Origin: Cyanidioschyzon merolae
Lineage: Eukaryota
Reading direction: 5' to 3' (one strand)
Length of the DNA stretch: 64,000 bases
NCBI GenBank assembly: GCA_000091205.1
Contig: AP006500.2
The translations under genes and the position numbers were made by a program. Position 1 is the stretch's first letter. Each line of letters starts with the position of its first letter. The notes under the pieces were generated by a model, which did not search any database, was not told where the DNA came from, and saw only the letters and a list, made by a program, of their open reading frames with translations. Positions 14,397 to 59,300 of this stretch are shown here, one piece after another.

Positions 14397-15528
14397 CACC
14401 ACCATCATCACGTACCAGGCGGGGGTCTCGCGCTGCTTCGCTGCAGGCGAGCGGCTGACAGAGCGTCGAACGACAACTACGGGATGTACCGCACCCACCG
14501 GGGCGCTCGATTTAATGATCTCGTCCGTAGAGGAGCACTCGTCTGAGGATGACGGTACACGGCATTGCATGCCAAGGAGCTGGGATCTCTGTCGAGGTCC
14601 CGTCCCCGGGCAGCGTGGACAAATCCATGAATGCATACCTCATGAGACACATCAATCGCATTGTATCCGAGAGCGCAACACAGGGCACAGGGTCGTTCGC
14701 TCGTCAAATCTGAGCACCCGTGCGGAACTCGGGAGAGGCGTTGCAAGAACCCTGAAGCATGCAGCAAGAAACGAAGGTTTCTTCCCGAGTTATTAGCGGC
14801 AGCGGCGCATCTGACGGTGCCGAGTTCGGATCATCGTTCCTACGTACCATGCCTGTAACCAGAGAATCTTCAAGTAGAAAACACGGGCAAACGGGCCTCT
14901 CTCTGTCGCACGCTGGCATCCGCTGCTTTAGGTTGCCACCTATATTGCCGCTCGCAACGGGACGGCGTTGTCACCTGCCTAGCTCCGAGCGTGTGCGTTC
15001 CGCAAGCCTCTGTCACTGGGAGCGCCAGTACGATGCGTCATCGCTGCGTCACAAGGAAACCGCGCTTGGCGATTCTACGCTCCAACCAGATCATCGACAG
15101 CGGGTATCGAACTGCTGCCCAGACGTACGGGTAATCTCTTGGCGTGAGCACAGCCGCTTCCGCGGGTTATGCAGGAGCGGCGCCAAGCGGTACAGACCCG
15201 ATGGGAAACGCTGCCCAGCAAGCACCCACGTCGTCTCGTTCGTCAACTGCGAAGACGCGTCCAGAGACTTCGAATTGGTAGCTTTCGAGCAAAAGCTCCG
15301 CAATCGGCACGCCTGGGCCGCTCCTCTGATAAGCGTCCGGCATCTGCACCAAAGAATATCGATCACATGTGTATAGATAGAGTATCCTCGCATGAAGCTT
15401 TCATTGCAGGTAGGACGTGTACGGTGACTCGTCGACGGCAGCAGGTACGCGCCCCAGAGAACGATGTTGCCTTGACCCGGGTCCCGGTTACGAAGCAGAC
15501 GTGAAGGCAACACAGCTGCCTTGCCAGT

Positions 15529-24270: not shown

Positions 24271-26514
<2,244 letters not shown>

Positions 26515-32483: not shown

Positions 32484-34616
32484 TTATGATCTGTCCAGGT
32501 CTTCAGGAACGGCATTCGGATCGACTAAATTCAGAAAACTTGTATTGCTCGGGAGCCGTACAAGTGACCCCCAGCTCATTCGCTCGTTGCGTCGTAGAGG
32601 TCGCGTCGACTGCTGCAGGGACACGTCATCGGTGTGATCTCGAGGCGCCGTACGCGGTGCGTGCTCGATAAACATCACATCCGTGTCCGTCGAGTGCGTG
32701 CTCGCGTCCCGCGGCGCATCGCCCTTGCCTCTCGCAACGGGTGTCGCGTTCGGGTACGCACTCGCTGTTGATGCTTCTCCGTCGGTAGCGCGGAATGCCC
32801 CGTGCTCGACGTGCTGCAGCATCTGAAGAAAACGATCCTCCTGAGTGTCGTTGATGGAACTGAGAAACATCCACGCCATCGGTGGTAGTTCATCTGTTGG
32901 CTTGCCGGACAAGAGCTGCAGGATGCTTTGTGTCGAGCCGTTTCGCTGAATCGACAGTGTTCGCGGTGTCAGCGAACGCACAAGCGGAGAAAGCGTTGCC
33001 GAGCGATCCGGTAGCGCGCTCTGGGATGGCAGCAGGCTCGGAGCGTTCACTGGGTATGCTGAAGGTTGCAAGCCGCCCATGCCGCCTGGGTTTGCGACTA
33101 AATCCAGCTCGTCGATTGGCATGGTCACAGCAGCGGTTGCAGTTATCATGGGAGACGCCGTCTCCGGAGTCGGTGAAAAACTATTCACATGACGATCAGA
33201 GAGAACGGATGAAAAATACAAGGGCGATGAAGGTCCGGACCGTCGTTGCCACAAAGGGATCGACTCTCTGGCGGTATCGGGCACAGACTCGATGCCGGAG
33301 CTGTCTCCCGCGGGCGAACCGCGTAGCCTCCTGGTATGTAGCTGCACCTGAAGTAGATCCGCATAGTGCTTGACGCGCGGCTCACATTGCGGATCTTGGG
33401 CAAACGCTTCGAGGCCGCGCTGCAACAGATCCATATCCAATTCCATCGGGCGATACAGGTCTGCCGTTGCGAACGCACCGGCTCGGGAAGCTTGTTGTCC
33501 CGGAACGTATCCTCGATGATCATCACTGGGGGTCGGCGTATGCAAGCTAAGTTCGCTGGGAATCGGGTTGATGCCTTTGACCGGAGCCGGGTACCCCAGG
33601 CGCGTTGTCTCCGGCTCCCGCGTCGCATGTGGATTGAAGAGTGCGTCTTGGCTCCACGTCCGTCCGTATTCGAATTCCTGCAAATCATCCTCTTTCAGAA
33701 TACTCTCCAGTGCTTGGCTAGCCTGTTTGGGCGAAGGATGTTTCAGCTCTCCATCGGCTGCGTCGTCTCGTTGTGATTCTGCGCTTCGGGAGCGGCGTCC
33801 GGCACTACCATCCCCAGCAGTTTTTTGGCGAGCGCTCGAGCGACCGCGCGAGTTTGAGCGCGAACGGCGACCTCTTCCACCATCACTACGAGGGGAATAC
33901 GCGTCACTGCTCGCCAATTCGGGAATATCCAGGGAATCTGTACCCAAAAGCACCGCGAGTTCATCAGGAGCATCTCTTCCGTCCGTAGAGCTCATCGGAA
34001 CCGAGGCTGATTTTGGATCATCCTCTTCTGACTGGCCTTGCTCTTCAACGAGGAAGAGTTCGGTGCGGCGTTGAGTCGCGCTCTCATCCAACGACCGTCG
34101 CCGACGGCCTTTCTTTCGGGATGTCTCGTTCTCTCTGCCCACGGATCGCTCAAATTCCTTGTATCCAGCGGATTGGTCCGTCGTAATCCCTGGTTTCCCG
34201 TCCACACTACTGGCGGAGTCCACGCTGGTGCGCTGCAGGACATCGAGAAGGCTCTGCGATCGAAACTGGTCCCTGGCGGCATCGATCGCCACCATCGGGA
34301 TTCGCATGCCCGTCTGAGAGTCCACTTGTTGGGAGAGAATGAAATATTCCCATATTTGGTCGTTGCTGAGCTGAACATCCCCATTCACAAAGTTCAGAAC
34401 CAGCTTTGCGGCCTCTCGTGCAAGGCGCAGGTAGTATTTCTGGGCGTGTGTGCGCACCTGAGTTGCCGTTCGGGTTGCGACATGCTCCGCAATCGAGCGC
34501 ACATCTTTGAACCCGTAGAGCTCCAGCGCTTGCAAAAAACGCAAGTGCTCTTGCTCGGACCAGTAACGTGGTTGCGGTGTGAGCGCTCCGGAACTTGTTT
34601 TCGCGGTCGCTTTCAT
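32484..34616 (-). CDS. MYB-like (SHAQKYF-class, single-repeat SANT/Myb) DNA-binding protein with a long low-complexity tail. Start chosen at MKATAK; the ORF is open to 34742.
   Basis: WSEQEHLRFLQALELYGFKDVRSIAEHVATRTATQVRTHAQKYYLRL is a canonical SHAQKY(F/Y) Myb/SANT repeat (W...E...F..AL...G..W..I...V..RT..QV.SHAQKYF). The remaining roughly 600 aa are Ser/Pro/Arg-rich and disordered. Confidence 0.7.
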   Translation of the reverse strand: MKATAKTSSGALTPQPRYWSEQEHLRFLQALELYGFKDVRSIAEHVATRTATQVRTHAQKYYLRLAREAAKLVLNFVNGDVQLSNDQIWEYFILSQQVDSQTGMRIPMVAIDAARDQFRSQSLLDVLQRTSVDSASSVDGKPGITTDQSAGYKEFERSVGRENETSRKKGRRRRSLDESATQRRTELFLVEEQGQSEEDDPKSASVPMSSTDGRDAPDELAVLLGTDSLDIPELASSDAYSPRSDGGRGRRSRSNSRGRSSARQKTAGDGSAGRRSRSAESQRDDAADGELKHPSPKQASQALESILKEDDLQEFEYGRTWSQDALFNPHATREPETTRLGYPAPVKGINPIPSELSLHTPTPSDDHRGYVPGQQASRAGAFATADLYRPMELDMDLLQRGLEAFAQDPQCEPRVKHYADLLQVQLHTRRLRGSPAGDSSGIESVPDTARESIPLWQRRSGPSSPLYFSSVLSDRHVNSFSPTPETASPMITATAAVTMPIDELDLVANPGGMGGLQPSAYPVNAPSLLPSQSALPDRSATLSPLVRSLTPRTLSIQRNGSTQSILQLLSGKPTDELPPMAWMFLSSINDTQEDRFLQMLQHVEHGAFRATDGEASTASAYPNATPVARGKGDAPRDASTHSTDTDVMFIEHAPRTAPRDHTDDVSLQQSTRPLRRNERMSWGSLVRLPSNTSFLNLVDPNAVPEDLDRS

Positions 34617-36708
34617 TCGCGCGTTCGCTTTCCGGTTCGTTGGGAGCTGTGAGGAATGAGCAGACTCTCCAAATCGACTAGTACAAGTTGCAGCACGTGG
34701 AAAAACTGCAGCTACGGCACAAGCACTGCCAGAAATATCCATAACAAGCGTTTTTCACGTCGAGGTGCTCCAGTTACCTTTTCGCCTCGTTGGAGCACGA
34801 GCACCCGTGAACCGCGGACCGGAAGGCACGTCTCGGAACAGCGCTGTTGCTTACCTCTAAATCACGAAGCCGTCGTTGCTATATACAGAAGACGAGCTCG
34901 TCGACCAGTAAGGCTAACGCTGGCAAACTCGTCGATAGGCAGGCTGCGGCCTTACTCCGGGGAACCGAAAAGCCTACGTTCAGGGGCTTCTCTACCCAGT
35001 TCTTCCGGACTCTGCAGTTCTTAAAAGTGCTCCCCACAGTTAGTACTCTGTGCAGTGAGCGCTGGTTCCCAGTACTGCTTCCTGGCAACCGAAACGCGCT
35101 CAGTAGCAGGCGAACTTGCCAACGAGTCCAGGCAACTGGATATTGCCTTGTGGCGGTATCAGGAACAGCGCTTCGCGGATGGCTATGCTCGATCGTCCCG
35201 TTGGCGTCACGTGCGTTTCGCGATCCGCGCCAGGGATTCCCTTATTTGCATGGTCAGGGCGCAGCGATGGCCAATGGCGATTCGATCTGTACAGACGCCA
35301 CGTCAATTGTCCCTTTAGGTACAAAATGATACGCATTGTGGGGTGTGCATCTGTGTTGCATGGTGGCAGAGGGCCGGCGGCAACTGCCGCCTCGAGGTCG
35401 TCTGCCCAGATTCATGGAACGTCGGCTCTGCTGGCCCCGGCGGTCTCCGTGGCGTCACCAGGTGCCTCCAAGTAGCCATGTGGTTGATCAGGAACTAGGT
35501 CGCGGTGACACCGCTCGTTCTGCCCGGCGATTGCTCCGCAATGTGCCAAGAATCGTAACCGCCTGCACTATATAGCGAGGGAGCCGCAAGAAGCGCCCGC
35601 GGCAGTGCTTATCATCAAGTGTGAATGATCGAGGAGAGCAACTGATGCTATCTCAGGTACAAGCTCTATAATCGGATGACTAGAAGTTCAGTTCCGTGAT
35701 CGCTTGAGCGTGAGAACGTTTTCCAACCTGGCCGTTGCGTGGCACTTACGCGCACCCTACCCTCGTATCGGGCTGAAGACGTCGCGCAAACGCAAATGAA
35801 TGGGTCCCTGTTGGGCACGACAGAGCGGTGCCTTGTGATTACACGCGGGCTCTTGAGCGATTTCGCTCGATCCAGCGTTCATAATGCTAGCATCTTGGGC
35901 ATTCAGCAGCCGACAAGGCACCAGGTGTGCGTCATGCACGCGTCATCGCAACTGTTGAGCCGTATTTTCTGCATCTGAACGCCTGAGCACCAGTTCAACA
36001 CCACAGGTGGCGTTTCGCGGTGGCGGCATGCACCAGCGACTACGCAGATTCCCCGATAGAAACCGCCATGCGCTGTCGAGAGCCCCGCTGCACGGCATTG
36101 GCGCGAACGGCGGCCTGCAGTCAGTGTTGCGAATGCAGCGCAGCACGTAACCAACAGCAGTTTCCATAATCAACGAAACAAGCGCTACCTCCAGATTCGG
36201 GACATGATTCAGAGCCCAGGATCCAATGAAGGCAGCAACGAGCAGGGTTTTGGTGCCGTGGAGCCTTCGCGCCAGCAGCCAAGGCATCCGCCTGGCAGCG
36301 ATGACAACCGCAGAGAGGCGTCGAGCCCCGCGAGCAGCATCAGAACCGGACAATAACGAACTTAAATACCAATAGGTATACAGATTGGCACGCGCCGCAC
36401 CATCCGTAAGGCTTCTGGACAACGAATCGATTCTATAAAGTAATTTCCCTTACCGACAGAAAGTCTGCACAATTTAGGACACATCGATCACCAGCATCGA
36501 AACGACGTTTGGACGCCTCGCAGGCCCGCCGCGGTTGCAGCGCAGGCGACGGGCGCGCACCGAAGAACGGCCGTCGACCGAGCGCGCGCACTGGGCGGCG
36601 CACTGAGGGCGTCACGCGGCATGCTCGCCAGCGAGCAACCAGCACAAGAACGTGGTGGTGTGGTTTTCGGTAGGCGCCGGCGTCCTCGACCAGGGCGAGC
36701 GGGTGTTC

Positions 36709-39700
36709 ATGATGGAGGCAGAGGAGAGTTACACGGAGTGGAAGCGCCTCCTGGAACGCGCTGTAGCGCTGGAGGCTCAGTTGTTTAGCGAACGAACTCA
36801 GGGAGGTTTCGCAGGCGAGTCTTTCGCGGCGGGAGTGCCAGCCAGCCACGAGAAGCTGGACCCGTTCCTGAAACCGCGCTTTCCGCCGGCGTATCGTAAC
36901 CTGAATCAGCTGGAGAGCGAGTCACAGAGACTGTTGAAGCAAACAGGTGCCACCGAGGCAGGCGCCGAGAGTTCCTTTGCAGGCACGTCGACGGAGCACG
37001 CACGTGCGCACGCTTTGCTGGCCCAGCGCGGCTTTGATCCAGATCGCATCGAACTCCAGGCGAAGCAGGTTGATTTGGTTGAAGATGTCGAGTATCTGGA
37101 GCCGTTTGCTGAGACCGACCTCGATACTTGGCTTCGGCTGCAGCACGAATGGGCGGTTTTAGAGCTTTGCGAGCTCGCCCGACATCGTACCGATTCCGCT
37201 GCCGAGGCGCTCTGGGAAGATCATGCAGCAGCTTCATGGGAACAACGTCGGAAACAGCTATTAAGCCTTCTGGGTAGTAGCACCGATGCGCTGAATCTGC
37301 GTGATATCCTAAGCTACACCGGGGGATCGGTCGACGCACGTAACCTTCGAAGTCGCACCCAGAGCCGAGCACGATCCGCATCGCCTTCAGGCGCGGAGAC
37401 AAGTCAGCGAACACCGGTGCAGTTAGATCGACGGGCGCGAGAACACCCTGAGCGCCAAGAGAGCAGCGAGCCGCACTCAGGTTTTGAGCGCGAATGTGCA
37501 GCCCTGGTCCTCGCTCTAGTTCGCCAGGCACCGGATAGTAGATCGCAGCTCTCTGAATCCGCGCACATCACGCAGTGGAGTGGTCTGGATATCAGCACTT
37601 TTTTGAGCGGCCAGGTGGCCACGTCTGTAGTTGGCGCTGCGGACTTGTCGACGGACCTCGTTGCGTTGAGGTTTGCACGAGCCGCGCGTAAATGGTCCCA
37701 GGTACGCACTGCGGCAAGTTGGCCGCATGTGTCCTACTCCGAAGCATGCTACGAAATTCTCTGTGCTATGCTTGGAGAAGGCGATCTCACCGCGACTCTC
37801 ACGAGGCCAGATTCGTTTGCCCGAAAGCAACCATTGACGCATGAATACGGCCCGTTCCGCGCACCTGCAGAAGGCATGCTTCGACCAAGTCGAGGGCACC
37901 GCCTTCGTTTCGTCTGCGGTGCACTTGACTGGCTTCAGAGGCAATTTCACCAACGCAAGCTGCGCCTCTCCATTGAACGCGAACCAGAAATGGCAGCACT
38001 CGGTGGCAAAACCGGCACACTAGCAGAAGTCCGTGCGTACCTGCGGGTCATGGAGGCTGGAACGATGGCGGTATCGCGACCGACGGGCTGGCTGACTGAG
38101 GATCCTTTTGCGGAGATCTATTACTGTCTGCGGTGCGGTGACATTGGGGCGGCTGTAGAAGCGGCCAAAGATTGGCTCTCCCCAGAAGGCAAACACTACT
38201 CCGGCGATGATCTACCTCGGTTCCTGACCTATCTAGAAAGTTTCGAGCAGAGCGCTCGTCGTCGATGGCAAGCTATTCGCCGCGCAAACGGTGGACCAGG
38301 TCCGTCCGAAGCGGGGTCGACTTCACAAGCGTTCGAGCTAAGGGGCCTGCGGGGCTCCGTCAAGGCAACGATGCTGTCACAAATGATCCACGACTACGGA
38401 TTATTTGTGCACAAGTCGCAGCTCCGATCTGGATACCGAGACTGGAGTGTCGCTTGGAACGCTAATGCCCAAGAGGAGCAACACCGTTTGGTAGAGCGCG
38501 ACATATTCAAGCGCGTCTGCTACGTGCTCATAGGACGTTTCAACAGCGCGGCACCAGAAGGAATGGAGTTGCTCGATATGGATTACGACGTGCTGTTTGC
38601 ATCCATCGAGGACTATCTCTGGATGCGTCTGTGGACATGCCGTCTCAGTGTCGATGAATGCGATGGAGAGCTTGGCTTCATTTCGTCGGAGCGCTCAGGT
38701 ATCGATGAAGAGACGCTCGCCGATGAGCGCTTGCCTCCGGAGATGAGCACGCTGGAGCTTCCACTGGATGCCGTCCAAGAGGAGATGCGCCAGTTCGGAT
38801 CGGCCCATTTTGACCCGCACGGTAATCGACCGCACTTCTACGCGATGATTCTGCTATTGACGTGTCAGTTTGAGGCAGCGCTGACCTATCTGGTGTACAA
38901 CGGTGTTGTGCGGGCGAGCGCGAGTGCCCTGACGCAGGACCCTCTGGTAGATGCGGTTCACCTCGGCCTGATCCTGAACTATTATGGTGCGCTCACCGAG
39001 TACGTACAACAGGATTCAGATCTTGTTCTCTACGACTATGCCGCAATTTTATGGCGCTACCTTCAGCGAGAGCAACGTGAAGTCTCTCTGGCCAAGGCCG
39101 ACCCTACTGCTGCTGCGGCCTACCTCATGACCATTCGCGATGCGGAACAGCGTTTCGCGTGTCTCTGCAAACTCGTCACCACGACCCGGGAGTTCTCGCT
39201 CCTGCTTGGTGCGATGATTCCCGGGACGTTACGACGACGCCCCGGGGTTATCGAACGACTCGAGCGCACTGCCTATACGACGCGGCAGCTTGCAGGCACT
39301 GCTGCAGAATGGGCTCGCGTTGCTTACGCTTGTGCAGAGTCGTGCGAAATAACCGGGGACGTTATCCACGCTGCAATGCTCTTCGAGCTAGCAGGTGATT
39401 TGAATCGAGTGATGTCGATCTTGATTCGAGCGCTCTGCTCCACGTATCTGGATCATCGCTTCTACCAGAATCGTCTACCACAGCCGGTGGATATGGAGCG
39501 CCAGCAACTGGAGCTGGCGAAGCAAGCGCAGTCCATATACGAAAAATACGAGCACGAAGGTGTCCTCAGTAGGCGTGAAGAAGATGGTGGACACAGGAGC
39601 TCCGATCAACAGACGAGTGCGCGTTTAAGTCGTTCGCTGGCGGTCGCGCTAAAGCTCGCGCGCTTTATTGCGCTCGTTTACGATGAAGCGCAAGACGACT

Positions 39701-40143
39701 CTGACCCAGACTCGTCTGCGGTTTCCCGAAAAAGCGTTGAGGAGAGATACGAAGCTGCGCTGGAGCTTCAGAAACAGCTTGGCCTGCTGCCTTTCTCTCG
39801 TTCGCAACTTACGGCAAAGGTAGAAGCACTTCGTCCAGGTGCAGTCTACGAGGACGCTCTTGTAGAACGCCTGCCAGTTGTGGTTCTTACGCTCATGCGT
39901 GTCGTGCATGTCCTCTACGAGAACACGAAAACTGCTTTGCGTACTGGTATCCCACACAAGTCGCCCGCGGAGCAAGCGCGTCCAAGCGAGCGCACCGTTT
40001 TAGCTTGGCGTTCTAGTATGGAGCAGCGCCTCGCTGAACTGAAAGAAATCGCTAGCACCCTGGTTACGTTCAGTGGTATGATACCCTTTATGACTGCAGC
40101 AGAGACGTCAGAGCTGGTGCGCTTGGAAATGACGCTCACGTGA
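36709..40143 (+). CDS. NUP93: Nucleoporin Nup93/Nic96 family.
   Basis: EIYYCLRCGDIGAAVEAAKDW, DYLWMRLWTC, HFYAMILLLTCQFEAALTYLV and the C-terminal TLVTFSGMIPFMTAAETSELVRLEMTLT parallel the conserved Nup93 blocks (IYxCLRCGD; DYLWLKL; LYFQVLFLTAQFEAAVAFL; TLITFAGMIPYR...LVQMEVLMN). N-terminal coiled-coil region MMEAEESYTEWKRLLERAVALEAQL. About 1145 aa with insertions. Confidence 0.8.
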   Translation: MMEAEESYTEWKRLLERAVALEAQLFSERTQGGFAGESFAAGVPASHEKLDPFLKPRFPPAYRNLNQLESESQRLLKQTGATEAGAESSFAGTSTEHARAHALLAQRGFDPDRIELQAKQVDLVEDVEYLEPFAETDLDTWLRLQHEWAVLELCELARHRTDSAAEALWEDHAAASWEQRRKQLLSLLGSSTDALNLRDILSYTGGSVDARNLRSRTQSRARSASPSGAETSQRTPVQLDRRAREHPERQESSEPHSGFERECAALVLALVRQAPDSRSQLSESAHITQWSGLDISTFLSGQVATSVVGAADLSTDLVALRFARAARKWSQVRTAASWPHVSYSEACYEILCAMLGEGDLTATLTRPDSFARKQPLTHEYGPFRAPAEGMLRPSRGHRLRFVCGALDWLQRQFHQRKLRLSIEREPEMAALGGKTGTLAEVRAYLRVMEAGTMAVSRPTGWLTEDPFAEIYYCLRCGDIGAAVEAAKDWLSPEGKHYSGDDLPRFLTYLESFEQSARRRWQAIRRANGGPGPSEAGSTSQAFELRGLRGSVKATMLSQMIHDYGLFVHKSQLRSGYRDWSVAWNANAQEEQHRLVERDIFKRVCYVLIGRFNSAAPEGMELLDMDYDVLFASIEDYLWMRLWTCRLSVDECDGELGFISSERSGIDEETLADERLPPEMSTLELPLDAVQEEMRQFGSAHFDPHGNRPHFYAMILLLTCQFEAALTYLVYNGVVRASASALTQDPLVDAVHLGLILNYYGALTEYVQQDSDLVLYDYAAILWRYLQREQREVSLAKADPTAAAAYLMTIRDAEQRFACLCKLVTTTREFSLLLGAMIPGTLRRRPGVIERLERTAYTTRQLAGTAAEWARVAYACAESCEITGDVIHAAMLFELAGDLNRVMSILIRALCSTYLDHRFYQNRLPQPVDMERQQLELAKQAQSIYEKYEHEGVLSRREEDGGHRSSDQQTSARLSRSLAVALKLARFIALVYDEAQDDSDPDSSAVSRKSVEERYEAALELQKQLGLLPFSRSQLTAKVEALRPGAVYEDALVERLPVVVLTLMRVVHVLYENTKTALRTGIPHKSPAEQARPSERTVLAWRSSMEQRLAELKEIASTLVTFSGMIPFMTAAETSELVRLEMTLT

Positions 40144-40535
40144 ATCCGACTTGAGTATCGGCCAGCAGTTGGACGTGGACACTGCGTCGGATACGTGCAT
40201 CGAGACAGTATAAGCATTCCCTTACGACTCACAAGCGTATGCCGCTGGTCCCGGACGGAGACGTGTTCCGGTCTGGGTAGAATCACACGAGCGCAGCTGC
40301 AGCAGGTTCCCCAGTCGGTGATCTCTGCACGTTAGATTCATCTGTGGATGAGAGTATCCTATGGATCCTCAGGGATATACGCAGATCGCGTAGGGTAAAC
40401 GCATTTATTCTTGATGGTGCATTGCACGATAGAAACGTATTCATGTGATGCGTATGCCGTTCTTGCATTTGTACGCGAATCTTACCTCGCTGATGGTGGA
40501 ACGTTTAAGCATATGAGAAGGAACGCTGCTCTCCT

Positions 40536-40787
40536 CGCTCGTTACAGTCATCACTCGGTGCTTGGGAAAGCATCCGGTTCGATTCACCGGTATCCCGTCA
40601 GTGCAAGTCGTGGTACTCGCATTGCTCGTTACTGTCATCACTCGGTGCTTGGGAAAGCATCCGGTTCGATTCACCGGTATTCCGTCAGTGCAAGTCGTGG
40701 TACTCGCATTGCTCGTTACTGTCATCACTCGGTGCTTGGGAAAGCATCCGGTTCGATTCACCGGTATTCCGTCAGTGCAAGTCGCAT
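40536..40787. repeat. Tandem repeat, 84-bp unit x3, between the Nup93 stop and the sulfite oxidase start.
   Basis: cattgctcgttactgtcatcactcggtgcttgggaaagcatccggttcgattcaccggtattccgtcagtgcaagtcgtggtactcg is repeated at 40536, 40620 and 40704 with about 97% identity. Each unit contains a ccgg-ttcgattca-ccgg hairpin. It lies in frame with the downstream SO ORF, but 5' of the chosen start at 40897. Confidence 0.9.
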
Positions 40788-40896
40788 TGCGATCTGCAGG
40801 AGCGGCATGGCGAGATGTTCGCGTCCAGCATCGCGATACGGCAAACACCTGAACAAAACGATTCGTGAACAGTTTATTTTCAATAGTTTCAGAGCA

Positions 40897-42375
40897 ATGG
40901 AACGTTCTTTTAACGGATATATTCAATATATTGATGACTACAGCCATGAGCCTGTGAATCAAAGGCGATATGACTTGCTCGTTGTTCAGAAAGAGCAACC
41001 GTTCAACGCAGAGCCAAAAGCTCCGCTACTGGTTCAGCACCACGTGACTCCAACGGAGCGCTTCTATGTGCGTAGCCACGGTCCAGTGCCAGCTTGTCCC
41101 GACAGTACACGTTTCCGTCTGGTTGTAGACGTGTCGCTGGCGCTCGAGCACTGTCAAAGTGGTGCGCAAGATAACCAAAAGCGGCCGGGTCAGCTGCAGT
41201 GGAGTCTCGAGACGCTTCGGGAGAAGTTCAAGTTTACGGAAGTGGAAGCTTGTCTCCAGTGCGCTGGCAACCGCCGCACTGAACTTGTGGATCGAACGAA
41301 ACGACCCGTGAAAGGCGTAGGTTGGCATCAAAGCGCCATCGGAAACGCTCGCTGGGGAGGGTTCCTGCTCGCCGACCTGCTGCGTTTCTCGCTGCACCAA
41401 GCGGGCCTGACGGACGACGCACAGCTCGCACAAGTTCCTTGCGATGTTTGTATCGAAATGGAGGGCGCGGATTGGGTCCCAGAAGAGGAATACCGACGGA
41501 AGCATCGTGACACGCCCCCACCAGGCTACATGGCGTCTCTCCCGTGGTCCATGGTCATGGGTGATGGCTCCAGCGGGCACGCGGTGCCTCCCGTGCTGCT
41601 GGCAACGCACATGAATGGTGCTCCGTTGACTGCAGACCACGGGTACCCGCTGCGCTGTGTCGCCCCCGGAATCTATGGAGCTCGCTCCGTGAAATGGTTA
41701 TGGCGGATTGGGCTCAGACGCGGACATTCTGACGGTTACTTTGTGGAGCGCGACTATAAGGTTTTCTCACCAGCTGTGGACGCAGCATACGTGCGATGGG
41801 ATAGTGCGCCTCCACTCCTGGAAGTCAATGTGCAGTGTGCAGCATGCGTGCCAGCAGAGCGAGCTTGGAAGTTGTGGACCTCCAAGGCTGACCGCCACCC
41901 GCCAGGCACCGCCTCAAGTCTGGTGGTGCCGCTCTGGGGCTATGCGTTCAGTGGCGGTGGACGGCGAATCATTCGCGTCGATATCAGCGGTGATGCCGGT
42001 GCAACATGGACCGTCGCACAGCTCATATTCGGTGAAAAGGGCGCGCACCATGCGATCAGAGCGGAGTCCGCACGAGTAGCAGACGACACCGATGAAGCAC
42101 ACAATCTCTATACACCAGGATTGGAGCCTTTCCGGGTACGTCCACTCGATACCGAGCGTCCGATTGCGAACGATGCCCATCGCTATGCCTGGTGTCGCTG
42201 GTACGCGAAGCTAGCGATTCAGCCGCCGTGTGAGGTCTGGTGCCGCGCCGTCGACGAGTCTGCGAATACGCAGCCCGACGACGTGCGGGCCTGTTGGAAC
42301 TTTCGAGGGGTTGCACACAACTCCGTATATCGAATCCGAGTGGAATCGGATGACGGACCACGATCGCGGCTGTAA
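40897..42375 (+). CDS. SOX: Sulfite oxidase, plant-type (Moco domain + dimerisation domain, no cytochrome b5 domain), with a peroxisomal PTS1-like C-terminus. Start chosen at MERSF; the ORF is open to 40411 through a tandem repeat.
   Basis: LLVQHHVTPTERFYVRSHGPVP, LQCAGNRRTELVDRTKRPVKGVGWHQSAIGNARWGGFLLADLL (the Moco-binding Cys loop) and HGYPLRCVAPGIYGARSVKWLWRIGL match the sulfite oxidase family. The C-terminal tripeptide is SRL. Plant sulfite oxidases end in SNL and are peroxisomal. Confidence 0.85.
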   Translation: MERSFNGYIQYIDDYSHEPVNQRRYDLLVVQKEQPFNAEPKAPLLVQHHVTPTERFYVRSHGPVPACPDSTRFRLVVDVSLALEHCQSGAQDNQKRPGQLQWSLETLREKFKFTEVEACLQCAGNRRTELVDRTKRPVKGVGWHQSAIGNARWGGFLLADLLRFSLHQAGLTDDAQLAQVPCDVCIEMEGADWVPEEEYRRKHRDTPPPGYMASLPWSMVMGDGSSGHAVPPVLLATHMNGAPLTADHGYPLRCVAPGIYGARSVKWLWRIGLRRGHSDGYFVERDYKVFSPAVDAAYVRWDSAPPLLEVNVQCAACVPAERAWKLWTSKADRHPPGTASSLVVPLWGYAFSGGGRRIIRVDISGDAGATWTVAQLIFGEKGAHHAIRAESARVADDTDEAHNLYTPGLEPFRVRPLDTERPIANDAHRYAWCRWYAKLAIQPPCEVWCRAVDESANTQPDDVRACWNFRGVAHNSVYRIRVESDDGPRSRL

Positions 42376-43234
42376 GCGACGTTCATCTAGGATGCGCACC
42401 AGCAGAAGTTTTATCCTCGAACGGAACGCGTCCACGTTGACGCCAGTGTACTGTGCAGCGCGTGGTCGAGCAAACGGCGCCATATCTCTCGAAACTGCGG
42501 ATATGCATTGAACAGCGCCCTACAGCGTTTTGTCTACATGTTACCCAGTGATTTTCTTGTGAGCACGCTGGCGCTTGGTAAGCTTAAAGTGGATGTTTCG
42601 TTGGCGCCGCGTTCTGACTCCGTCGACGTGAGGAGATGGCAGGCATCCCTGTGACGAGAGGCTTTTCCCACGACGCTATGTACACTCCGCATACCTGGTT
42701 TTCAGTAGCGAATCGAGCTTGATCGGAATGTCAAGTGCAAAATTTCAGTCAAACGGAGACATAGATACGATGTGATGCAATCGAATCGGTACTCCTTGGG
42801 CATTTGTGAAACGCATTTCCAGTCCGGGATCGGTTATGAGGTAAACCTGTCGAGATTTAGGTATGGGTAAGAGTACTTGTTTTTGTCTTGAAGAGGAGAA
42901 CGCTTCAAAGCTTGATCGAATCGTTCCAACGAATCACTGGATTCCTCGCTGTGAGGATCGCTCAGTTCACACCTGAGTGCAAGCACGCCATCGTCAAATG
43001 CCACGTCGTCGGTCCCTGCGTACAAAGGATGAACCTTGCGAGGTCTGCAAAACTCAGGAACGAGCGTTTTCGGTTCTGAGACGCTCTAAGGTCCAAGAAT
43101 TGGACGCCTCTTCGCCATATGCATCACAACTGTACACACTGTCCGGTAAGAGAGTACACGCGCAAAATGAAGCCTGGCAAGTCGCTCGCCTCAGCTACAA
43201 CGCCACCCACACCTGCCGATGCATCGTCGTTGTC

Positions 43235-43252
43235 GTGGTGGTGGTGGTGGTG
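43235..43252. repeat. (GTG)n trinucleotide microsatellite.
   Basis: gtcgtggtggtggtggtggtgccg read directly. Confidence 0.85.
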
Positions 43253-43600
43253 CCGCGGCCCGAGCCCTCGGGGTCATGTGTTCTATCAGGCTCTCTGCGT
43301 CGATCTCGGATAATGACGACTCAATCTGGGTACCGGAGATCACGATTTCGGACCTTGATCCCTTCAAAAACTGTCTGCGAAGTGTTTGCAGCGCGGCATT
43401 GCATGTACATGCATCATGACACCTCTGCACTGCCCGAGAAGCACCAACATACCGATGACTTGGGCCATCCGCACAACTTGGTACACCCACACATACAAAT
43501 GCCATATCCAGAGCCTTCTGCTAGTGTCTGGTCGCTAGACGATGCATCCGGAGAGCGCCGTCCGCGGACGTTGCACTCGCCTTGAGGTAGTGCGCGAGTA

Positions 43601-44701
43601 TCACGGAGCTTCGATACCGGGTCGCATCAGCAGCGACGCTGCCAACCCGAGGTTCCCGTTCGCTGCTGCGAGCGCTGACCTGGCTGAGGCTTCATCGAAT
43701 CCCATGGCAACGAGGCGCTGAACATTGACGTCTGTCTCGTTACGAGCCGGAGCGGAATCGAGGCCTCTTGCTTCTGCGATCTCTCTGTCGCTGAGAAACG
43801 GAACAGCGCGGTCTCTCTCTCGCAGAACATTCTCTCTCAAATCAATACACATTCCGTGCTTGCGCAGCGTGTCGAGACCCAGAAGCATATCCGTATTCAG
43901 CTGCTCGACAATGGCAAAGGAACATTCATACCATTCTCCATCGAGTTCCATAAGCGCCATATGGACCCGTCCGATGAACTCTGCCCGTCCCAGGCCGATG
44001 GCAGTGCCGCGAAAACGCCGATCAATAAGTCTGCTGAGACCGGAACGCTCCGCACAAGCCTGGCTCATAACGGTGCACTGTGCGCCACTGTCGACAAGTG
44101 CAAGGACCGGCTGGGCGTTGCGAGCTGAGTCAGCAGTGACACGAACTCGAACGTACAGCGGCGTAATATACGTGAACGACTCTACATTGTGCTCCAGAGC
44201 AGCCGCCAGATTCTCCTGAATGTTATGTTCATGAATCGCAGCTTCAATCCGGCGCTGTAGCTCTGGACTCATGAGCTCATCTTCAAATGGCATCGAGGTC
44301 CAATCAGAGCCGCTTCGGGACACTAGTCCACTGACGCCAGCTGTGGCAGGTAAAGCGCTCGTCTCTGAGATAGGGGCAGGCAGCGCAGCGTCGCGGTCAC
44401 GTACCGAGTCTGGTGCAGTCGTCTGTGCACGCTCCAGGGCTTGATTTCGGAACTGAGGTTCAACAGTGATAAGTTCATCGTCCGGAAGGGCTAGCTCGCG
44501 AACGGTTCGTTGAGGCGGGAGCAGCTGGCCCCGCCAACGAAACGCATAGTTTACGGCTGCGTCTTCCACAACACTTTCGCTGGGGTGAAGCTCGACGAGA
44601 ACCGCTTCCAGCAAGTCCGCAATAAGTGCTTCTTCTGAAGCTTCTAAAGTCGCGAAACGCTCACCGTCTGCAGACACAAAGCATAATCGTTTACTCGTCA
44701 T
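43601..44701 (-). CDS. DDI1: DNA-damage-inducible protein 1 (Ddi1): ubiquitin-like domain, retropepsin-like aspartyl protease domain and C-terminal UBA domain.
   Basis: N-terminal UBL MTSKRLCFVSADGERFATLEASEEALIADLLEAVL. Protease core YVRVRVTADSARNAQPVLALVDSGAQCTVMSQACAERSGL...GLDTLRKHGMCIDL with the D-S-G-A-Q active site typical of Ddi1. C-terminal UBA VQRLVAMGFDEASARSALAAANGNLGLAASLLM. Confidence 0.85.
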   Translation of the reverse strand: MTSKRLCFVSADGERFATLEASEEALIADLLEAVLVELHPSESVVEDAAVNYAFRWRGQLLPPQRTVRELALPDDELITVEPQFRNQALERAQTTAPDSVRDRDAALPAPISETSALPATAGVSGLVSRSGSDWTSMPFEDELMSPELQRRIEAAIHEHNIQENLAAALEHNVESFTYITPLYVRVRVTADSARNAQPVLALVDSGAQCTVMSQACAERSGLSRLIDRRFRGTAIGLGRAEFIGRVHMALMELDGEWYECSFAIVEQLNTDMLLGLDTLRKHGMCIDLRENVLRERDRAVPFLSDREIAEARGLDSAPARNETDVNVQRLVAMGFDEASARSALAAANGNLGLAASLLMRPGIEAP

Positions 44702-45559
44702 GGTACTGTCCAGAAAACTCAAGAGAGAAACCGTTTTCAGCGCCACGCGTGACGCCGACTTGTCAGGTAGCAGCAGGAAGACCCAAGTATGTGCTCTGAA
44801 CGCTCAGGATCAATCTAACCCGTGCATACCTCCGGGACTGATATGCTCAGGTGTATAAAAAAGCCGCCACTGAGAGCAGCTGTCGCCTTAAAGGACGAAC
44901 ACCAGCGCCCGTGGTGGAAAGTTCCAGCGTAGTCTGGCAGCTGTGGCGGTATTGCCGTTGTGTGCAGCCTCGAACCGCTGCTGCACTCTGGGGCCAGCAC
45001 GTGGATGCAAAAGTATGCAGGAGACTACCTGCAAGGTCCGTATACATCCAGGGCAGTCTACAGGGCCTCTACAATGGCGATCAGTCGAACTGTTCACGCT
45101 GCAATGGTGTCAGTTTAGCATGGAAAACTGAACTGTTAGCTCGGTTCCTGCCTTTCGAATCTTTCCGAACTTGTGCAGCCACGACGATCGAACTGCAGCA
45201 AAAAGGACTTAAGGATGTATACGTAGGTTTAGGATTGTGGGTCTTATGTTTAGGCTGGCTTCTTCGACACGTTGTCGGTGGAACGCTGTGCATCACCAGT
45301 ACCCGGGTGATTCGCGACGCTCTCCAACACGGGTTCGTCGACGAACCAGTATGCTTCTTCGAAGCGTACAACCAAAGCTCCACGCTTCTCTATTGCTTAC
45401 GTTTAACGTGGCCAAATCACGCATGTTTCAAGTTTTGGGCGCTTATCTTTCAAGGCATCTCGTGGGCGTCGCAACGCACGCTGCTGGCTTGGCGCGGAAA
45501 AATGCTCGACGTGGCCATTGGCTGCATATGCACGAGCTCGTATCGAGACCTCACTGAAC

Positions 45560-55860: not shown

Positions 55861-56074
55861 GCGGTTCCCGGTTCCAGCAAGAGGTTAGTGTGCGCGCCTC
55901 CCTGACGCCCACACAGAAGTGTACACTTTTGCTGCCGTACACGAGCACTGCTGCTGCTCAAGCGCCAACTCTAGCGCTTCCTTCAATAGCAGTGCAGCGT
56001 CTGGTTTCCTGTGTATACGAAAAGACGCTCCTCGCGTCTCTTGACTGTGTCAGGGGCACTTGCGTGTGCGCGCA

Positions 56075-56360
56075 CGCATGCACAGCATCATCAGCGCAGC
56101 GCAGCAGGCAATCGATTTCCTTCCCCATAAGGGGTGAAGCTGATAATGAAGCTGATGATGATCGCGATGACGCTGAGGCATCGCGCCGGGCTGGAAACCG
56201 TGGGCGGATGGATGTCACGCATGCACAGCATCATTAGCGCAGCGCAGCAGGCAATTGATTTCCTTCTCCATAAGGGGTGAAGCTGATGATGAAGCTGATG
56301 ATGATCGCGATGACGCGGAGGCATCGCGCCGGGCTGGAAACCGTGGGCGGATGGATGGAC
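56075..56360. repeat. Direct duplication, about 143-bp unit x2, followed by a (GGAT)n-like tract.
   Basis: cgcatgcacagcatcat[ct]agcgcagcgcagcaggcaat[ct]gatttcctt[c]cccataaggggtgaagctgat[ag]atgaagctgatgatgatcgcgatgacgc[tg]gaggcatcgcgccgggctggaaaccgtgggcggatggatg occurs at 56075 and 56218. Then ggatggacggatggatggatgg. Confidence 0.9.
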
Positions 56361-59300
56361 GGATGGATGGATGGGCGGCGCTGGTCCATTGCCGTGCCTA
56401 GATTTTGACGAGGCGCGCGCTGCGTGACGCTGCGAGGCACGGCCGACGTCGCGGGTTATATGACCGGCAAGCTGGAAGCACGCTGTGACTAGCGTAAACC
56501 CTGTTTTAGACGGAAACCTGTCTGTTGGACGCAAGACCGAGACAGGGTAAACACTAGCGCAGCCTGGGGGGTAGTAGCTTGCACGGCAACTGGCGGTGAC
56601 AGTTCCGCGAGTCAATCTGTTTTTTCTGAGGTAACCAGCTAGAGTTGGCATTGACGAATGGTGCGGAACTCACGAGTCACTGATTACAGCGGTTTCGTCA
56701 CAGCGTGCAGTGCGAGGCAAGCACTCGTCGGCTGGCATAGTCCCGTGAGACTGCACCTGGGCCGGCGTTTCCGGCTGCTGAAAAGTCGCTGGACGCGGTG
56801 TTTCTGCGGGCACCTGCGCTGCCGGGCGCTCAACACGCTGTCGTGCACACATAGGCGGCTGGCGGGTTCCGCAACCTGCGGACCGTTCGCAAAACGACCC
56901 GGAACTGTGCTGACTGCAGCGTGGTTGGCGGCTGTACCCTCAACGTCACGGGCAATTGAGTCAGGTTCGGCTACCACGGAATCAGTGAAGAGCGCCGCCG
57001 AGGAGATCGGAAACACAGCAGCGCAAGCCGCTACAACAAATAATGTGGACTGGAGCTCGCAGCTCACGAACTGGTTGGCTGCGATTGATGCAGTGCTGCT
57101 GGTGAGCGCCACAATTCTGACTATCATTGTGACAGTTCGCGACTGGCGCAGGCGAAGTGCTAAGAAAGAACAAGAGTCGAAATCAAAGGATTCAGGTGCA
57201 AGTAAAAATGCTCGCGAAGGAGATCGTTTGAAAGCAGCAGCGAACGCACCGCCCGGAAAACTCAACCGGTACCAACGACGCGAGTTACGGAAAAGACGGA
57301 ATCAAGACGACTCGTCGCTTTGATGACAAAGACCGGGAGCGCGTGAACGCAACCACAAAGTATTCGTAGATTTTCGCTCTGTTCTCATTGTAGTTTCGCG
57401 AAGCGCCCCGGGAGGAAACTGCAAAGCGCGCATCGAGGCTGCTGTTGCAAGAGTCGAGTGCCGCGGCGAGTCTCGAAGCGCTGCGTAAGCCGTCCGGAAT
57501 CGATACGCGCGCTCGGCACCCGTCGACACTAGCGACGATCCTTGAACCTACCTCTGCAGCGCTTATCACCACATGGTAGGATGAGAAGCTCCGGCATCGT
57601 GCATCACCGCCGCAATGCCTGCCGCGAAGGGCTCCAAGGAGCACACTACGGCCGGAACGCTGTGTGGCATTGTGCAGAGGCATTTCCACGTAACCTTCAT
57701 GGAAGGGAGCGCTTTGACGAGACTGGAAAAGCAAGGAGAGCACTACAGGAACCTCGCGCAATGCACGGTGTCCAAGAGACACGTCACTCGCGCGTTCTTC
57801 GTAAACGAATGTAGGCGCCTCGTCCTGCTTGCGGATACCGCTCGTGTCTCTCGTCATCTGTCGTTCCGGCGGTCTGCTGAGCGAACGAGATAGCTCGTAG
57901 CGACACCAACGCCTGTACGTCAACATGCAGAGAGACGCGCATTCCATGCACGTGTACTGTATTCGAAATACAGGACGTGTGCCATTGCGCTGGTCGAGTG
58001 GCGTCGCGAATCATCGCTCGGAAGCGCCCGTTATTGGTTGGAGGCCCCAGGAACGGCACCAGTTCCTGTCCCGTTGCAACTTCGAAACAGTGACCGGTTC
58101 GAAGGTCATATTGCGGAAACAGGTTCTCGTGTATCAGCGATAAACAGAGTGAGCCTGCCAGCCTCGCATTCCCATACTTGCATAAGTGCGGAACGCGTCT
58201 CACCGGGGACGGCAGTGCTGGTTGTAGCGGTAGTGTCCGGTTGACGTTTTGCGACTGCTTGGCGTGCTTCGCTGGCCACTATCGCAGATCATGCGCAACC
58301 TAGATGGTGCTTGCTTCTCCCGGACACATGATTGGCTCGGATGATTCCTAGCGAACGTTGGTTCACGCGATACAGATCTTTTACGAATGGCCCGTCAGCG
58401 GGATGGTCCGGATTGTTTTCTCGTCTACGTTATCAACCAGGAAAACGATGTAGCCATTCCTCAAACCCGCGCTCTGAAACCAGTCGGGGAAACGCGCTGC
58501 TCCAAAAGTCAACGAAACGGCGTTAGAGTCAAGGTCGGACGTCTATGGCGCCAGTGCACTAGTGGTAGCCCAGATGAATCCGGACGCTCAGCTCAGGCAC
58601 TGACACCTGGAGGGTAGGCTTCGTTGACGAAGCACGCAACACGGCCACAAGAGTGCACTTACACCAAGCGCTTCCAAGCATGCGTGAAACCTGCTGCAAG
58701 GTACTTAAACTGCTCCAGCAGCGCTGTTGCACGGTGCAACTGCATTCGCGCAGTGCAATCACTGGACGATGCGTCACGGCAAATAATTGCACCGGAAACT
58801 TGGGGAATATCTGACTCGGACTTGGTCTATATTTCGGTTTCACGGCAACGCCAGTGCTGAATCCTTTTGCGACACTGCACTGACGACGGAGCGGTACGCG
58901 ACATCGTCCCTGGATGACGTGTTGACAGCCATACGCTGAACGATCCGTGAGCTTCTCACGTTCAATCACCGGATTCATTCGAAACACGAATTCCGCTCGC
59001 TTCCTGAGCACCCGCAAAGCCGCATTCGTTCCCAGAATGATTCCTGTCACGGGGGATACGCCCAGATGCTGCCGTCGATTCTCCTTTCGCGGAAACGGAT
59101 GCCAGACGCTGACTCCAGTTCTCGCAGCGATGGCGTAGCGTGCGGGACGTATCACCGACTCGTACGAGGGCAGCGTCGACAGATCCACGATATTCGACTT
59201 GTTCCTCAGCCCGAAAACTCATTCCGGTGCTTGTTTCATCATGCGGAACATCGCACTCCACAGATCCCCCATCGAATGGAGCAGCGTGCGCTTTCTTAGA

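Follow-up and report, generated by a model that had tools for sequence, protein, structure and literature searches.

An 87-bp minisatellite, probably variable in copy number, lies upstream of the predicted sulfite oxidase gene of Cyanidioschyzon merolae

We analysed a 64-kb stretch of Cyanidioschyzon merolae 10D DNA (64,000 nucleotides, referred to here as the window) in which a gene annotated as a probable sulfite oxidase follows a nucleoporin gene, with a tandem repeat in the spacer between them. The features of this locus are as follows.

36652-40143, + strand: Nup93/Nic96 nucleoporin gene, the upstream neighbour (Pfam PF04097 at 8e-61)
40144-40536, + strand: unique spacer 5' of the array, expected to include the 3' flank of Nic96 and the distal part of the sulfite oxidase promoter
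40537-40623, + strand: minisatellite copy 1, 87 bp (Tandem Repeats Finder; repeat search)
40574-40590, + strand: CCGG-TTCGATTCA-CCGG inverted repeat of copy 1, present also at 40661-40677 and 40748-40764
40624-40710, + strand: minisatellite copy 2, 87 bp (Tandem Repeats Finder; repeat search)
40711-40784, + strand: minisatellite copy 3, shortened to 74 bp, without the unit's 13-nt end TGGTACTCGCATT
40798-40896, + strand: 99-bp stretch 3' of the array, up to the annotated start; a probable core promoter or 5'UTR
40897-42375, + strand: single-exon coding sequence of the sulfite oxidase, following the C. merolae 10D annotation (492 aa and a stop codon)
41191-41739 (approximate), + strand: Moco domain (Pfam; PDB matches)
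41260-41262, + strand: codon for C122 (492-aa numbering), the cysteine ligand of the Moco, within LQCAGNRR (alignment column)
41821-42345 (approximate), + strand: dimerisation domain (Pfam; PDB matches)
42364-42372, + strand: C-terminal Ser-Arg-Leu tripeptide of PTS1 type, then TAA (seen in the sequence)

Translation of 40897-42372 reproduces BAM82386.1 / XP_005538422.1 exactly ("probable sulfite oxidase", 492 aa, C. merolae 10D). The gene, with its start at 40897, is already in GenBank and is not new; a literature search with its accession numbers returned no paper. A sequence-only reading of this DNA had called a plant-type sulfite oxidase with intact Moco and dimerisation domains and a terminal SRL, and had named loss of the Moco cysteine loop on alignment as the observation that would undo the call. 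Both domains are recovered by Pfam far past the cut-off (Oxidored_molyb, PF00174, at 1.3e-35; Mo-co_dimer, PF03404, at 3.6e-25), whereas Pfam finds no cytochrome b5 domain (PF00173), even across the 654-aa open reading frame that contains the gene, and no FAD domain in the sulfite oxidase reading frame. The best solved relatives in a PDB search are the chicken and Arabidopsis sulfite oxidases (about 5e-59 and 5e-58), and the sulfite oxidase chains there score from 5e-59 to 2e-56 versus 1e-23 for nitrate reductase, which places the protein nearer to sulfite oxidase. The QCAGNRR loop lines up with QCAGNRR of the chicken enzyme, and its cysteine (C122), together with R59, R126/R127, W143, Y287 and R470, occupies columns that are invariant in an alignment with plant, Chara and Dictyostelium sulfite oxidases. 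Presumably these residues correspond to Cys185, Arg138, Arg190, Tyr322 and Arg450 of the chicken enzyme. Judged by these homologies, 40897-42375 encodes a predicted heme-less, plant-type sulfite oxidase, as the sequence-only reading had it, and the protein does end in SRL immediately before the stop codon.

Like Arabidopsis thaliana At-SO (PDB 1OGP) and other plant sulfite oxidases, the algal protein is a two-domain Moco enzyme that has no heme domain, shares the QCAGNRR loop and the other invariant columns, starts at a similar N-terminal position and has a PTS1-type C-terminus. Unlike them, it is only 38-42% identical in alignment, carries about 100 extra residues in four insertions held in common with Cyanidiococcus (492 versus about 393 aa) and ends in SRL rather than in the SNL/ANL-type ends of plants; its activity and location are predicted. 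Animal sulfite oxidase has an N-terminal cytochrome b5 domain and resides in the mitochondrial intermembrane space. The chicken liver enzyme (PDB 1SOX, 2A99) is the best-scoring solved relative (5e-59 to 1e-58) and has the same catalytic and dimerisation domains, aligned over residues 24-485, but the algal protein differs from it in having no b5 domain and in having a PTS1. Closer relatives are found among the cyanidiophytes, where the product of CCYA_CCYA02G0525 from Cyanidiococcus yangmingshanensis (P0002) and the orthologues P0003 and P0004 are 64-65% identical to the C. merolae protein (46% for P0004).

The PTS1 consensus is [SAC]-[KRH]-[LM], and the terminal SRL with its adjoining stop fits this tripeptide type. 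The three cyanidiophyte orthologues P0002, P0003 and P0004 end in ARL, ARL and AKL, so that PTS1-like ends are present in all four cyanidiophyte sulfite oxidases. The sulfite oxidase is thus most likely peroxisomal, as homology and the PTS1 motif together suggest for location and activity alike; it would enter the single peroxisome by way of its C-terminal SRL and oxidise sulfite to sulfate inside. A PTS1-tagged mCerulean3 reporter marks the C. merolae peroxisome (bioRxiv 10.1101/2021.05.23.445365), and our literature search found nothing specific on where the C. merolae sulfite oxidase itself localises.

The Nic96 stop codon at 40143 bounds a 753-bp spacer between the two genes. The order Nic96 then sulfite oxidase occurs in three other cyanidiophyte genomes as well, and the genes for P0002, P0003 and P0004 lie in the same Myb / Nic96 / sulfite oxidase / Ddi1-like protease neighbourhood. 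The orthologous spacers are unlike that of C. merolae, measuring about 230-290 bp from the Nic96 stop to the aligned start at two loci (L002, L003) and, at the third (L014), 73 bp up to its called start, and none of the three holds a repeat or anything similar to the 87-bp unit. Comparison of the C. merolae spacer with these orthologous spacers revealed no similarity and no shared 10-mers. A bacterial promoter and terminator scan of the DNA gave chance-level results and was set aside as irrelevant to a eukaryote.

Within the C. merolae spacer, Tandem Repeats Finder reports an array at 40537-40784 with a period of 87 bp, 2.9 copies, 98% matches and a score of 482, and a separate repeat search places three 87-nt copies at spacings of 87 and 87. 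Copies 1 and 2 differ at two positions (40546, A/T; 40594, C/T), and copy 3 matches copy 2 exactly over 74 nt before diverging from the repeat, so that the 13-nt unit end TGGTACTCGCATT occurs at the copy 1-2 and copy 2-3 junctions. A 45-mer from the unit occurs three times in the window versus zero times in 100 shuffles. The near-perfect head-to-tail repeat described by the sequence-only reading as three tandem 84-bp copies is therefore real, with a corrected period of 87 bp and 2.9 copies; the unit is 29 codons rather than 28, the 28-residue peptide quoted earlier having dropped one His. Read in the sulfite oxidase frame it would give the 29 residues HHSVLGKASGSIHRYPVSASRGTRIARYC. On the + strand the unit lacks both ATG and stop codons, and its length is a multiple of three. 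The array ends 113 bp 5' of the annotated ATG and spans 113-360 bp upstream of the start codon. With a head-to-tail unit in the range of 10-100 bp, repeated far above chance, the array has the make-up of a minisatellite, and three other high-identity minisatellites lie within the 64-kb window; it is an ordinary minisatellite for a stretch of the C. merolae genome. A dispersed repeat family was considered and rejected, since a scan of metagenome contigs with exact 27-mers of the unit matched the sulfite oxidase locus only and a blastn-short search with the unit found no match with E below 0.2 in either the masked window or the outgroup loci. The literature search likewise yielded nothing specific on the 87-bp repeat.

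The comparison of copy number across strains that the sequence-only reading had proposed was carried out on public assemblies, and it returned 1, 2, 3 and possibly 4 or more copies. The window has three copies, two JGI metagenome contigs (L005 and L006) have two, and five contigs (L001, L009-L011 and L013) have one; since these numbers come from short-read assemblies, in which tandem repeats may be collapsed, an apparent two-copy allele could really have three or more. Accordingly, the spacer measures 753, 666 or 579 bp, with three, two or one cores, in different assemblies. Six more contigs break within the array, implying at least two copies each, and two contigs from Ga0080006 (L017 and L018) jointly imply at least three copies and possibly four. 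The C/T site within the unit reads C,T,T in 10D, C,C in L005 and L006, and C,C,T in L018. It is unlikely, in our estimation, that the variation is an assembly artefact in which all strains carry about three copies that short-read assemblers have collapsed. De Bruijn assemblers do collapse or break tandem repeats, the six contigs break exactly at the array, and a collapsed path would omit exactly the 13-nt junction that is missing from the one-copy contigs. However, the one-copy contigs arose independently in five assemblies with different flanking haplotypes, one of them (the k=31 Logan contig L001) crosses the locus unbranched whereas other Logan contigs end where the last copy reaches its 31-mer boundary, at 40755, and the variants at the C/T site differ among the 10D, L005/L006 and L018 alleles. 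We therefore consider it likely that the array is a VNTR in the promoter or 5'UTR that differs between natural C. merolae strains in whole units. Two further Logan contigs, L007 and L008, start in the last copy and end about 170 nt past the stop codon. Their reading as transcripts was rejected because their 5' end coincides exactly with the point, 40755, from which 31-mers become unique to the right flank. At the other end, L007 terminates one base short of a SNP cluster (42547-42558) and L008 six bases before L007, and both look like graph breaks in mixed-strain DNA.

The array appears to be specific to C. merolae, with one to three or more copies among strains, and would gain and lose whole units by replication slippage or unequal exchange. 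Such length changes would be tolerated because the unit contains no ATG and no + strand stop and is a multiple of three in length, so that any copy number should add no upstream start codon and cause no frame change. Copy number would at most alter spacing, or the number of factor sites that the array carries, if it carries any. The human INS VNTR and MNS16A at hTERT resemble it: each sits just 5' of a gene, is built of head-to-tail units tens of bp long and varies in copy number between individuals by whole units. The C. merolae array differs from these in its small number of copies (1 to about 4) and in having no recognised factor site.

Given that the sulfite oxidase frame passes through the array, we asked whether the repeat is coding. 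The open reading frame on the + strand begins at a TTG and covers 40411-42375 (654 aa), and, as had been noted earlier, it runs without a stop from 40411 to the catalytic domain, 87 being 3 x 29. This openness through the repeat is uninformative because the unit is free of stops in all three forward frames (and in one minus-strand frame). The unique spacer at 40144-40536 holds the open reading frame starts 40411 and 40414 together with in-frame and out-of-frame ATGs. The codon log-likelihood per codon is -0.06, -0.02 and -0.04 for the three frames of the unit and -0.04 for the upstream unique sequence versus +0.10 for the coding sequence, in a test of modest power given the weak codon bias of the C. 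merolae genome. Likewise, GC3 is 0.44 in the upstream unique sequence versus 0.60 in genes. Among 11 alleles the unique spacer has 24-30 SNPs per kb versus about 7.5 per kb in the coding sequences on either side; the part of the reading frame that precedes the repeat has an intergenic-like 24 SNPs per kb versus 7.4 per kb in the sulfite oxidase coding sequence, and each of the three array polymorphisms would cause an amino acid replacement in the sulfite oxidase frame. In two of the three orthologues, those of Cyanidiococcus and a related genome (P0002 and P0003), the initiating Met of MQRSF aligns with the Met of MERSF in C. merolae, with unrelated sequence upstream, and at L003 gene calling offers no upstream "start" other than a GTG. 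Residue 8 of the Arabidopsis sulfite oxidase chain aligns to residue 13 of the C. merolae protein, and in the alignment the plant N-terminus falls 8 residues after the annotated Met. The two kinds of evidence expected of a coding repeat, namely frame-specific openness or codon usage and purifying selection or conservation in orthologues, both came out negative. The evidence thus points to a non-coding array in the proximal promoter or 5'UTR, translation being formally conceivable, and the earlier preference for a promoter or 5'UTR minisatellite agrees with openness, codon bias, SNPs and orthologues alike.

Translation of the repeat from an ATG at 40414 or 40513, which would place an expandable, acid-free, Arg/Ser/His-rich N-terminal repeat on the sulfite oxidase, appears very unlikely. 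In its favour are a frame that is open in every allele seen, a 29-residue unit with no Asp or Glu and eight basic residues, products of 595, 624 and 654 aa from automatic gene callers, and an openness of the unique parts that is unusual among shuffles (1-4%); the 108 non-redundant open in-frame codons 5' of 40897 are reached in 1% of dinucleotide shuffles of the spacer. Against it, the codon signal is not specific to one of the three open forward frames, the region from 40414 to the array evolves like intergenic DNA, the extension is present in no orthologue and matches no protein outside C. merolae, the 10D annotation begins at 40897, and out-of-frame ATGs at 40443, 40448, 40454 and 40493 come after the ATG at 40414. 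Moreover, a frame-preserving period has a prior of one in three and is found in two of the four minisatellites in the window. Runs of at least 100 open codons 5' of the first ATG occur at two of 12 other window genes as well. A translated repeat could act as a second organelle-targeting signal in competition with the PTS1. In a fuller form of this idea, translation would start at the ATG at 40807, some transcripts using 40513 or 40414 instead, and the extension, growing in 29-residue steps, would be a mitochondrial or plastid presequence competing with SRL. If that were true, VNTR copy number would set how sulfite oxidase is split between the peroxisome and another organelle; we regard it as highly improbable. 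The true N-terminus could nonetheless be 30 residues longer than annotated, since the in-frame ATG at 40807, between the array and the annotated start, is in a strong context (GGCATGG) and lies in the 99 bp (40798-40896) that show no SNP among 11 alleles. Prokaryote-style gene callers begin the protein there on several metagenome contigs (522 aa), and an out-of-frame ATG at 40815 opens a 17-codon reading frame.

If the array is non-coding, as we favour, it might still be a cis-regulatory module under selection, each unit carrying a transcription factor site such as the CCGG-N9-CCGG palindrome and copy number tuning sulfite oxidase expression across acid hot-spring populations. The position 113-360 bp 5' of the start codon, the differences in copy number among natural populations and the near identity of the units (98%) are consistent with this, and elsewhere there are VNTRs in promoters that alter expression, MNS16A at hTERT being one (PMC5438627). 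On the other hand, no motif in the unit is tied to a known factor, the element is missing from all orthologous spacers, recent duplication predicts high unit identity equally well, similar arrays are common in the window, and the structure of endogenous promoters in C. merolae was as of 2025 essentially uncharacterised (PMC12770821). We find this reading unlikely. It is extremely unlikely that the units are small RNA genes or Pol III/TFIIIC elements, whether as a tRNA-derived B-box array (GGTTCGATTC) serving as an insulator between Nic96 and sulfite oxidase or as short minus-strand C/D-box snoRNA-like genes (GTGATGA, 33 nt, CTGA, with flanks CCG and CGG). C. merolae is known for unusual (permuted) tRNA genes, which speaks for this proposal, and every unit has a B-box-like 10-mer and, on its reverse complement, C- and D-box-like motifs (GTGATGA and CTGA) with a 3-bp terminal stem. 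Yet ARAGORN finds no tRNA in the 64-kb window, cmscan at E up to 10 over 40100-41000 finds no tRNA or snoRNA family in the array (its single match, a chance glutamine riboswitch at E = 5.6, lies outside the array), and Rfam has no gathering-level match anywhere in the window. A tRNA or permuted-tRNA origin of the T-arm-like GGTTCGATTCACC, whose stem requires a bulge, was rejected on the ARAGORN and cmscan results. Enrichment of TFIIIC B boxes was also rejected, since three of the four matches (versus 0.66 expected) are copies of one event, leaving two independent matches when the site at 31260 is included. The snoRNA form has no D' or C' boxes and no Rfam match, its 51 nt fall below the typical eukaryotic snoRNA length, and SNPs in the array hit the putative terminal stem. 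As for the hairpin that had been ascribed to each unit, the inverted repeat is present in all three copies and forms a stem of 4-5 bp that includes the B-box-like GGTTCGATTC, but it is trivial: the unit, folded as RNA from either strand and in two phases, is no more stable than shuffles (z -0.1 to -1.4), so a stable hairpin was rejected, and the same comparison counts against a small RNA.

With the gene already annotated and the repeat ordinary, the overall importance of the locus is low. It does carry a caution about automatic gene callers, which add 30-162 spurious residues to the protein owing to the chance absence of stop codons from the repeat. The natural series of one, two and three copies immediately 5' of a gene could be a convenient case for asking whether promoter spacing matters. 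Because the alleles differ in 87-bp steps, the locus is also usable as a simple PCR typing marker for C. merolae strains and hot-spring populations.

The 5' part of the long open reading frame that contains the sulfite oxidase gene carries a near-perfect tandem repeat.

40411-42375, + strand, open reading frame of 654 aa with a TTG start

Tandem Repeats Finder placed the array at 40537-40784, with a period of 87 bp, 2.9 copies, 98% matches and no indels, and a second repeat search returned three 87-nt copies at spacings of 87 and 87. One 45-mer of the unit is present three times in the window but in none of 100 shuffles. The first two copies differ at two bases, while the third is identical to the second across 74 nt and then departs from the repeat. 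A stretch of 13 nt (TGGTACTCGCATT) stands at the end of the unit where copies join; the last copy lacks it, as do one-copy alleles. Since 87 is 3 x 29, the array does not break the frame, as the sequence-only reading had claimed of the frame open from 40411. That reading had described three 84-bp copies of 28 codons each; the repeat itself stands, but its period is 87 bp and the encoded repeat peptide has 29 residues, the earlier version being short of one His. Likewise, the CCGG-TTCGATTCA-CCGG motif that it had called a hairpin is present in every unit, but the unit folds no better than its shuffles (z of -0.1 to -1.4).

Downstream of the array, translation of 40897-42372 produced a protein identical to BAM82386.1 / XP_005538422.1 (492 aa). 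The sulfite oxidase gene is already annotated in C. merolae 10D, with its start at ATG 40897, and the array ends 113 bp upstream of that codon. In a protein search, BAM82386.1 came up within a cluster at 99% identity, followed by Cyanidiococcus yangmingshanensis (64%), two further cyanidiophyte proteins (65% and 46%) and plant sulfite oxidases (~35%). As the sequence-only reading had proposed, the molybdopterin-binding and Mo-co dimerisation domains are intact (Pfam, 1.3e-35 and 3.6e-25) and the protein ends in SRL; the Moco cysteine loop is present. No cytochrome b5 domain was matched in Pfam, even with the long open reading frame included, and the top solved relatives are the chicken and Arabidopsis sulfite oxidases (5e-59 to 5e-58), with nitrate reductase at 1e-23. 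The QCAGNRR cysteine (C122), R59, R127, W143, Y287 and R470 are all invariant when the protein is aligned with sulfite oxidases of plants, Chara and Dictyostelium. The C-termini of the three orthologues read ARL, ARL and AKL, and in C. merolae, PTS1-tagged reporters mark the cell's single peroxisome (10.1101/2021.05.23.445365). Together, the domains, best relatives, invariant residues, C-termini and reporter results provide good support for a plant-type and probably peroxisomal sulfite oxidase, whose location and activity are predicted from sequence. Unlike the plant enzymes, the C. merolae protein is longer by ~100 residues, owing to four insertions common to Cyanidiococcus that are lineage-specific relative to the plant, Chara and Dictyostelium enzymes. 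The largest, which falls within the dimerisation domain, is missing in the more distant cyanidiophyte orthologue P0004; one example region is at 42040-42177 (residues 382-427).

Given the open frame, the repeat might be translated as part of sulfite oxidase, and 108 in-frame codons stay open in only 1% of shuffles of the de-duplicated spacer. This figure is not decisive, however, given that at least 100 open codons precede the first ATG in two of 12 other genes of the window; long open stretches before the first ATG are common here. Moreover, the unit is stop-free in all three forward frames and one reverse frame, so that an open frame through the array is uninformative. A codon model was trained on 12 long open reading frames of the window. 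It gave +0.10 bits per codon for the sulfite oxidase coding sequence (coding windows, mean +0.11, sd 0.06), -0.06, -0.02 and -0.04 for the three frames of the unit, and -0.04 for the non-redundant upstream stretch (GC3 of 0.44 versus 0.60 in genes), a test that is only moderately strong because the codon bias is weak. Across 11 alleles taken from public assemblies, SNP densities per kb were 7.4 in the sulfite oxidase coding sequence, 7.8 in that of the upstream nucleoporin gene Nic96, 30 in the spacer at 40144-40413 and 24 in the nominal reading frame from 40414 to the array; all three SNPs within the array would be non-synonymous. The Met of MERSF/MQRSF and everything downstream are common to the orthologues, and nothing upstream is shared; the sole upstream "start" in one orthologue is a GTG picked by a prokaryotic gene caller. 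The alignment with Arabidopsis sulfite oxidase begins at residue 8 of that enzyme and residue 13 of the 492-aa product. Thus, five independent tests argue against translation of the repeat and support a non-coding array, as they do the earlier preference for a promoter or 5'UTR minisatellite over a peptide repeat.

We also considered whether the array encodes an RNA. No tRNA was found in the window, and Rfam gave no family over the array at E up to 10 and none at gathering score across the whole window. A B-box-like GGTTCGATTC in the array amounts to one independent occurrence. On the minus strand (40537-40797), each unit reads CCGA-GTGATGA-33 nt-CTGA-CGG, a C-box/D-box-like arrangement closed by a 3-bp terminal stem. 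In this it is similar to a C/D-box RNA of very small size, although D' or C' boxes are absent, Rfam gives no match and array SNPs fall within the putative stem; we rate the likeness as probably due to chance. The unit is absent from the rest of the window, the outgroup loci, and the metagenome collection outside the sulfite oxidase locus.

The sequence-only reading had suggested comparing copy numbers across strains. Comparison of the spacer from the Nic96 stop to ATG 40897 among C. merolae-like Logan and JGI contigs revealed differing copy numbers.

C. merolae 10D (window), spacer of 753 bp, 3 copies
L005 and L006 (two JGI metagenome contigs), spacer of 666 bp, 2 copies
L001, L009, L010, L011 and L013, spacer of 579 bp, 1 copy

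Logan contigs L007, L008 and L012 all start at 40755, the position of the first 31-mer that belongs to the right flank alone, as expected of a k=31 graph if their arrays hold at least two copies. Three JGI contigs terminate within the array. In metagenome Ga0080006, the first copy on the left-flank contig is T-type at a variant base and the last three on the right-flank contig are C, C and T, which points to at least four copies or a strain mixture. A spread of one, two and three or more copies is supported, in short-read assemblies that can collapse such arrays. Unit variants are arranged differently from allele to allele, a pattern that slippage or unequal exchange would produce. These environmental populations differ from 10D by ~0.5-1% at the locus and form several haplotype groups (L001, L005-L013). 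Automatic gene calls on the same contigs list "sulfite oxidases" of 492, 522, 595 and 624 aa, lengths due purely to start-codon choice and repeat number.

The array is most likely a VNTR of the proximal promoter or 5'UTR of sulfite oxidase, and one that is neutral or nearly so. Its sequence is free of ATG codons in every frame; those closest to it are at 40513 and 40807. With no ATG, no forward stop and a length that is a multiple of three, gain or loss of units would create neither upstream open reading frames nor frame changes, and length variation may be tolerated for this reason. For one C. merolae gene, a putative TSS lies ~165 bp before the ATG (PMC12989068), and no endogenous C. merolae promoter had been dissected as of 2025 (PMC12770821). 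From the array to the annotated start, the 99 bp at 40798-40896 hold no SNPs in 11 alleles, versus 24-30 per kb on the far side of the array. Within them, the in-frame ATG 40807 has a strong context (GGCATGG) and would add a basic 30-residue N-terminal extension (MARCSRPASRYGKHLNKTIREQFIFNSFRA); an out-of-frame ATG at 40815 opens a 17-codon open reading frame. Given this context and the SNP-free 99 bp, the real N-terminus could be 30 residues longer than annotated; the extension is not conserved in orthologues.

The orthologous spacers of three other cyanidiophytes are much shorter and lack the array, which is therefore specific to C. merolae. Measured from the Nic96 stop, they run for ~230-290 bp in L002 and L003, up to the aligned start codon, and for 73 bp in L014, up to the start that was called there. 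The called gene order at these loci is Myb-domain protein, Nic96, sulfite oxidase (64-46% protein identity to that of the window), Ddi1-like aspartyl protease and rRNA adenine dimethylase. In C. merolae (~34000-45000), Nic96 and sulfite oxidase were confirmed and so, from the near-identical contigs L005 and L006, was the Ddi1-like protease with a UBA domain. Directly downstream of sulfite oxidase, a + strand open reading frame of 195-202 aa (42977/42998-43585) contains a (GTG)6 run at 43235-43252 as a poly-Val tract; metagenome contigs have a 195-aa product called at the same place, with no Pfam match.

Three other high-identity minisatellites are present in the window, two just upstream of open reading frames.

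14136-14395, 58 bp x 4.5, 97%, ~360 bp upstream of + strand open reading frame 14759-15376
24336-24624, 45 bp x 6.4, 91%, ~190 bp upstream of + strand open reading frame 24811-26514
56073-56357, 143 bp x 2.0, 96%, overlapping - strand open reading frame 56091-56651

Such arrays are therefore ordinary for this genome. The gene is not new, and the repeat is a polymorphic minisatellite of an ordinary kind; the original observation holds with a corrected period, and its preferred interpretation is supported. In front of ATG 24811, the first ATG of its open reading frame, 180 codons are open (24271-24810) and span the 45-bp (15-codon) array; this is a second in-frame upstream repeat like that of sulfite oxidase, or perhaps a low-complexity stretch that codes on one of the strands.
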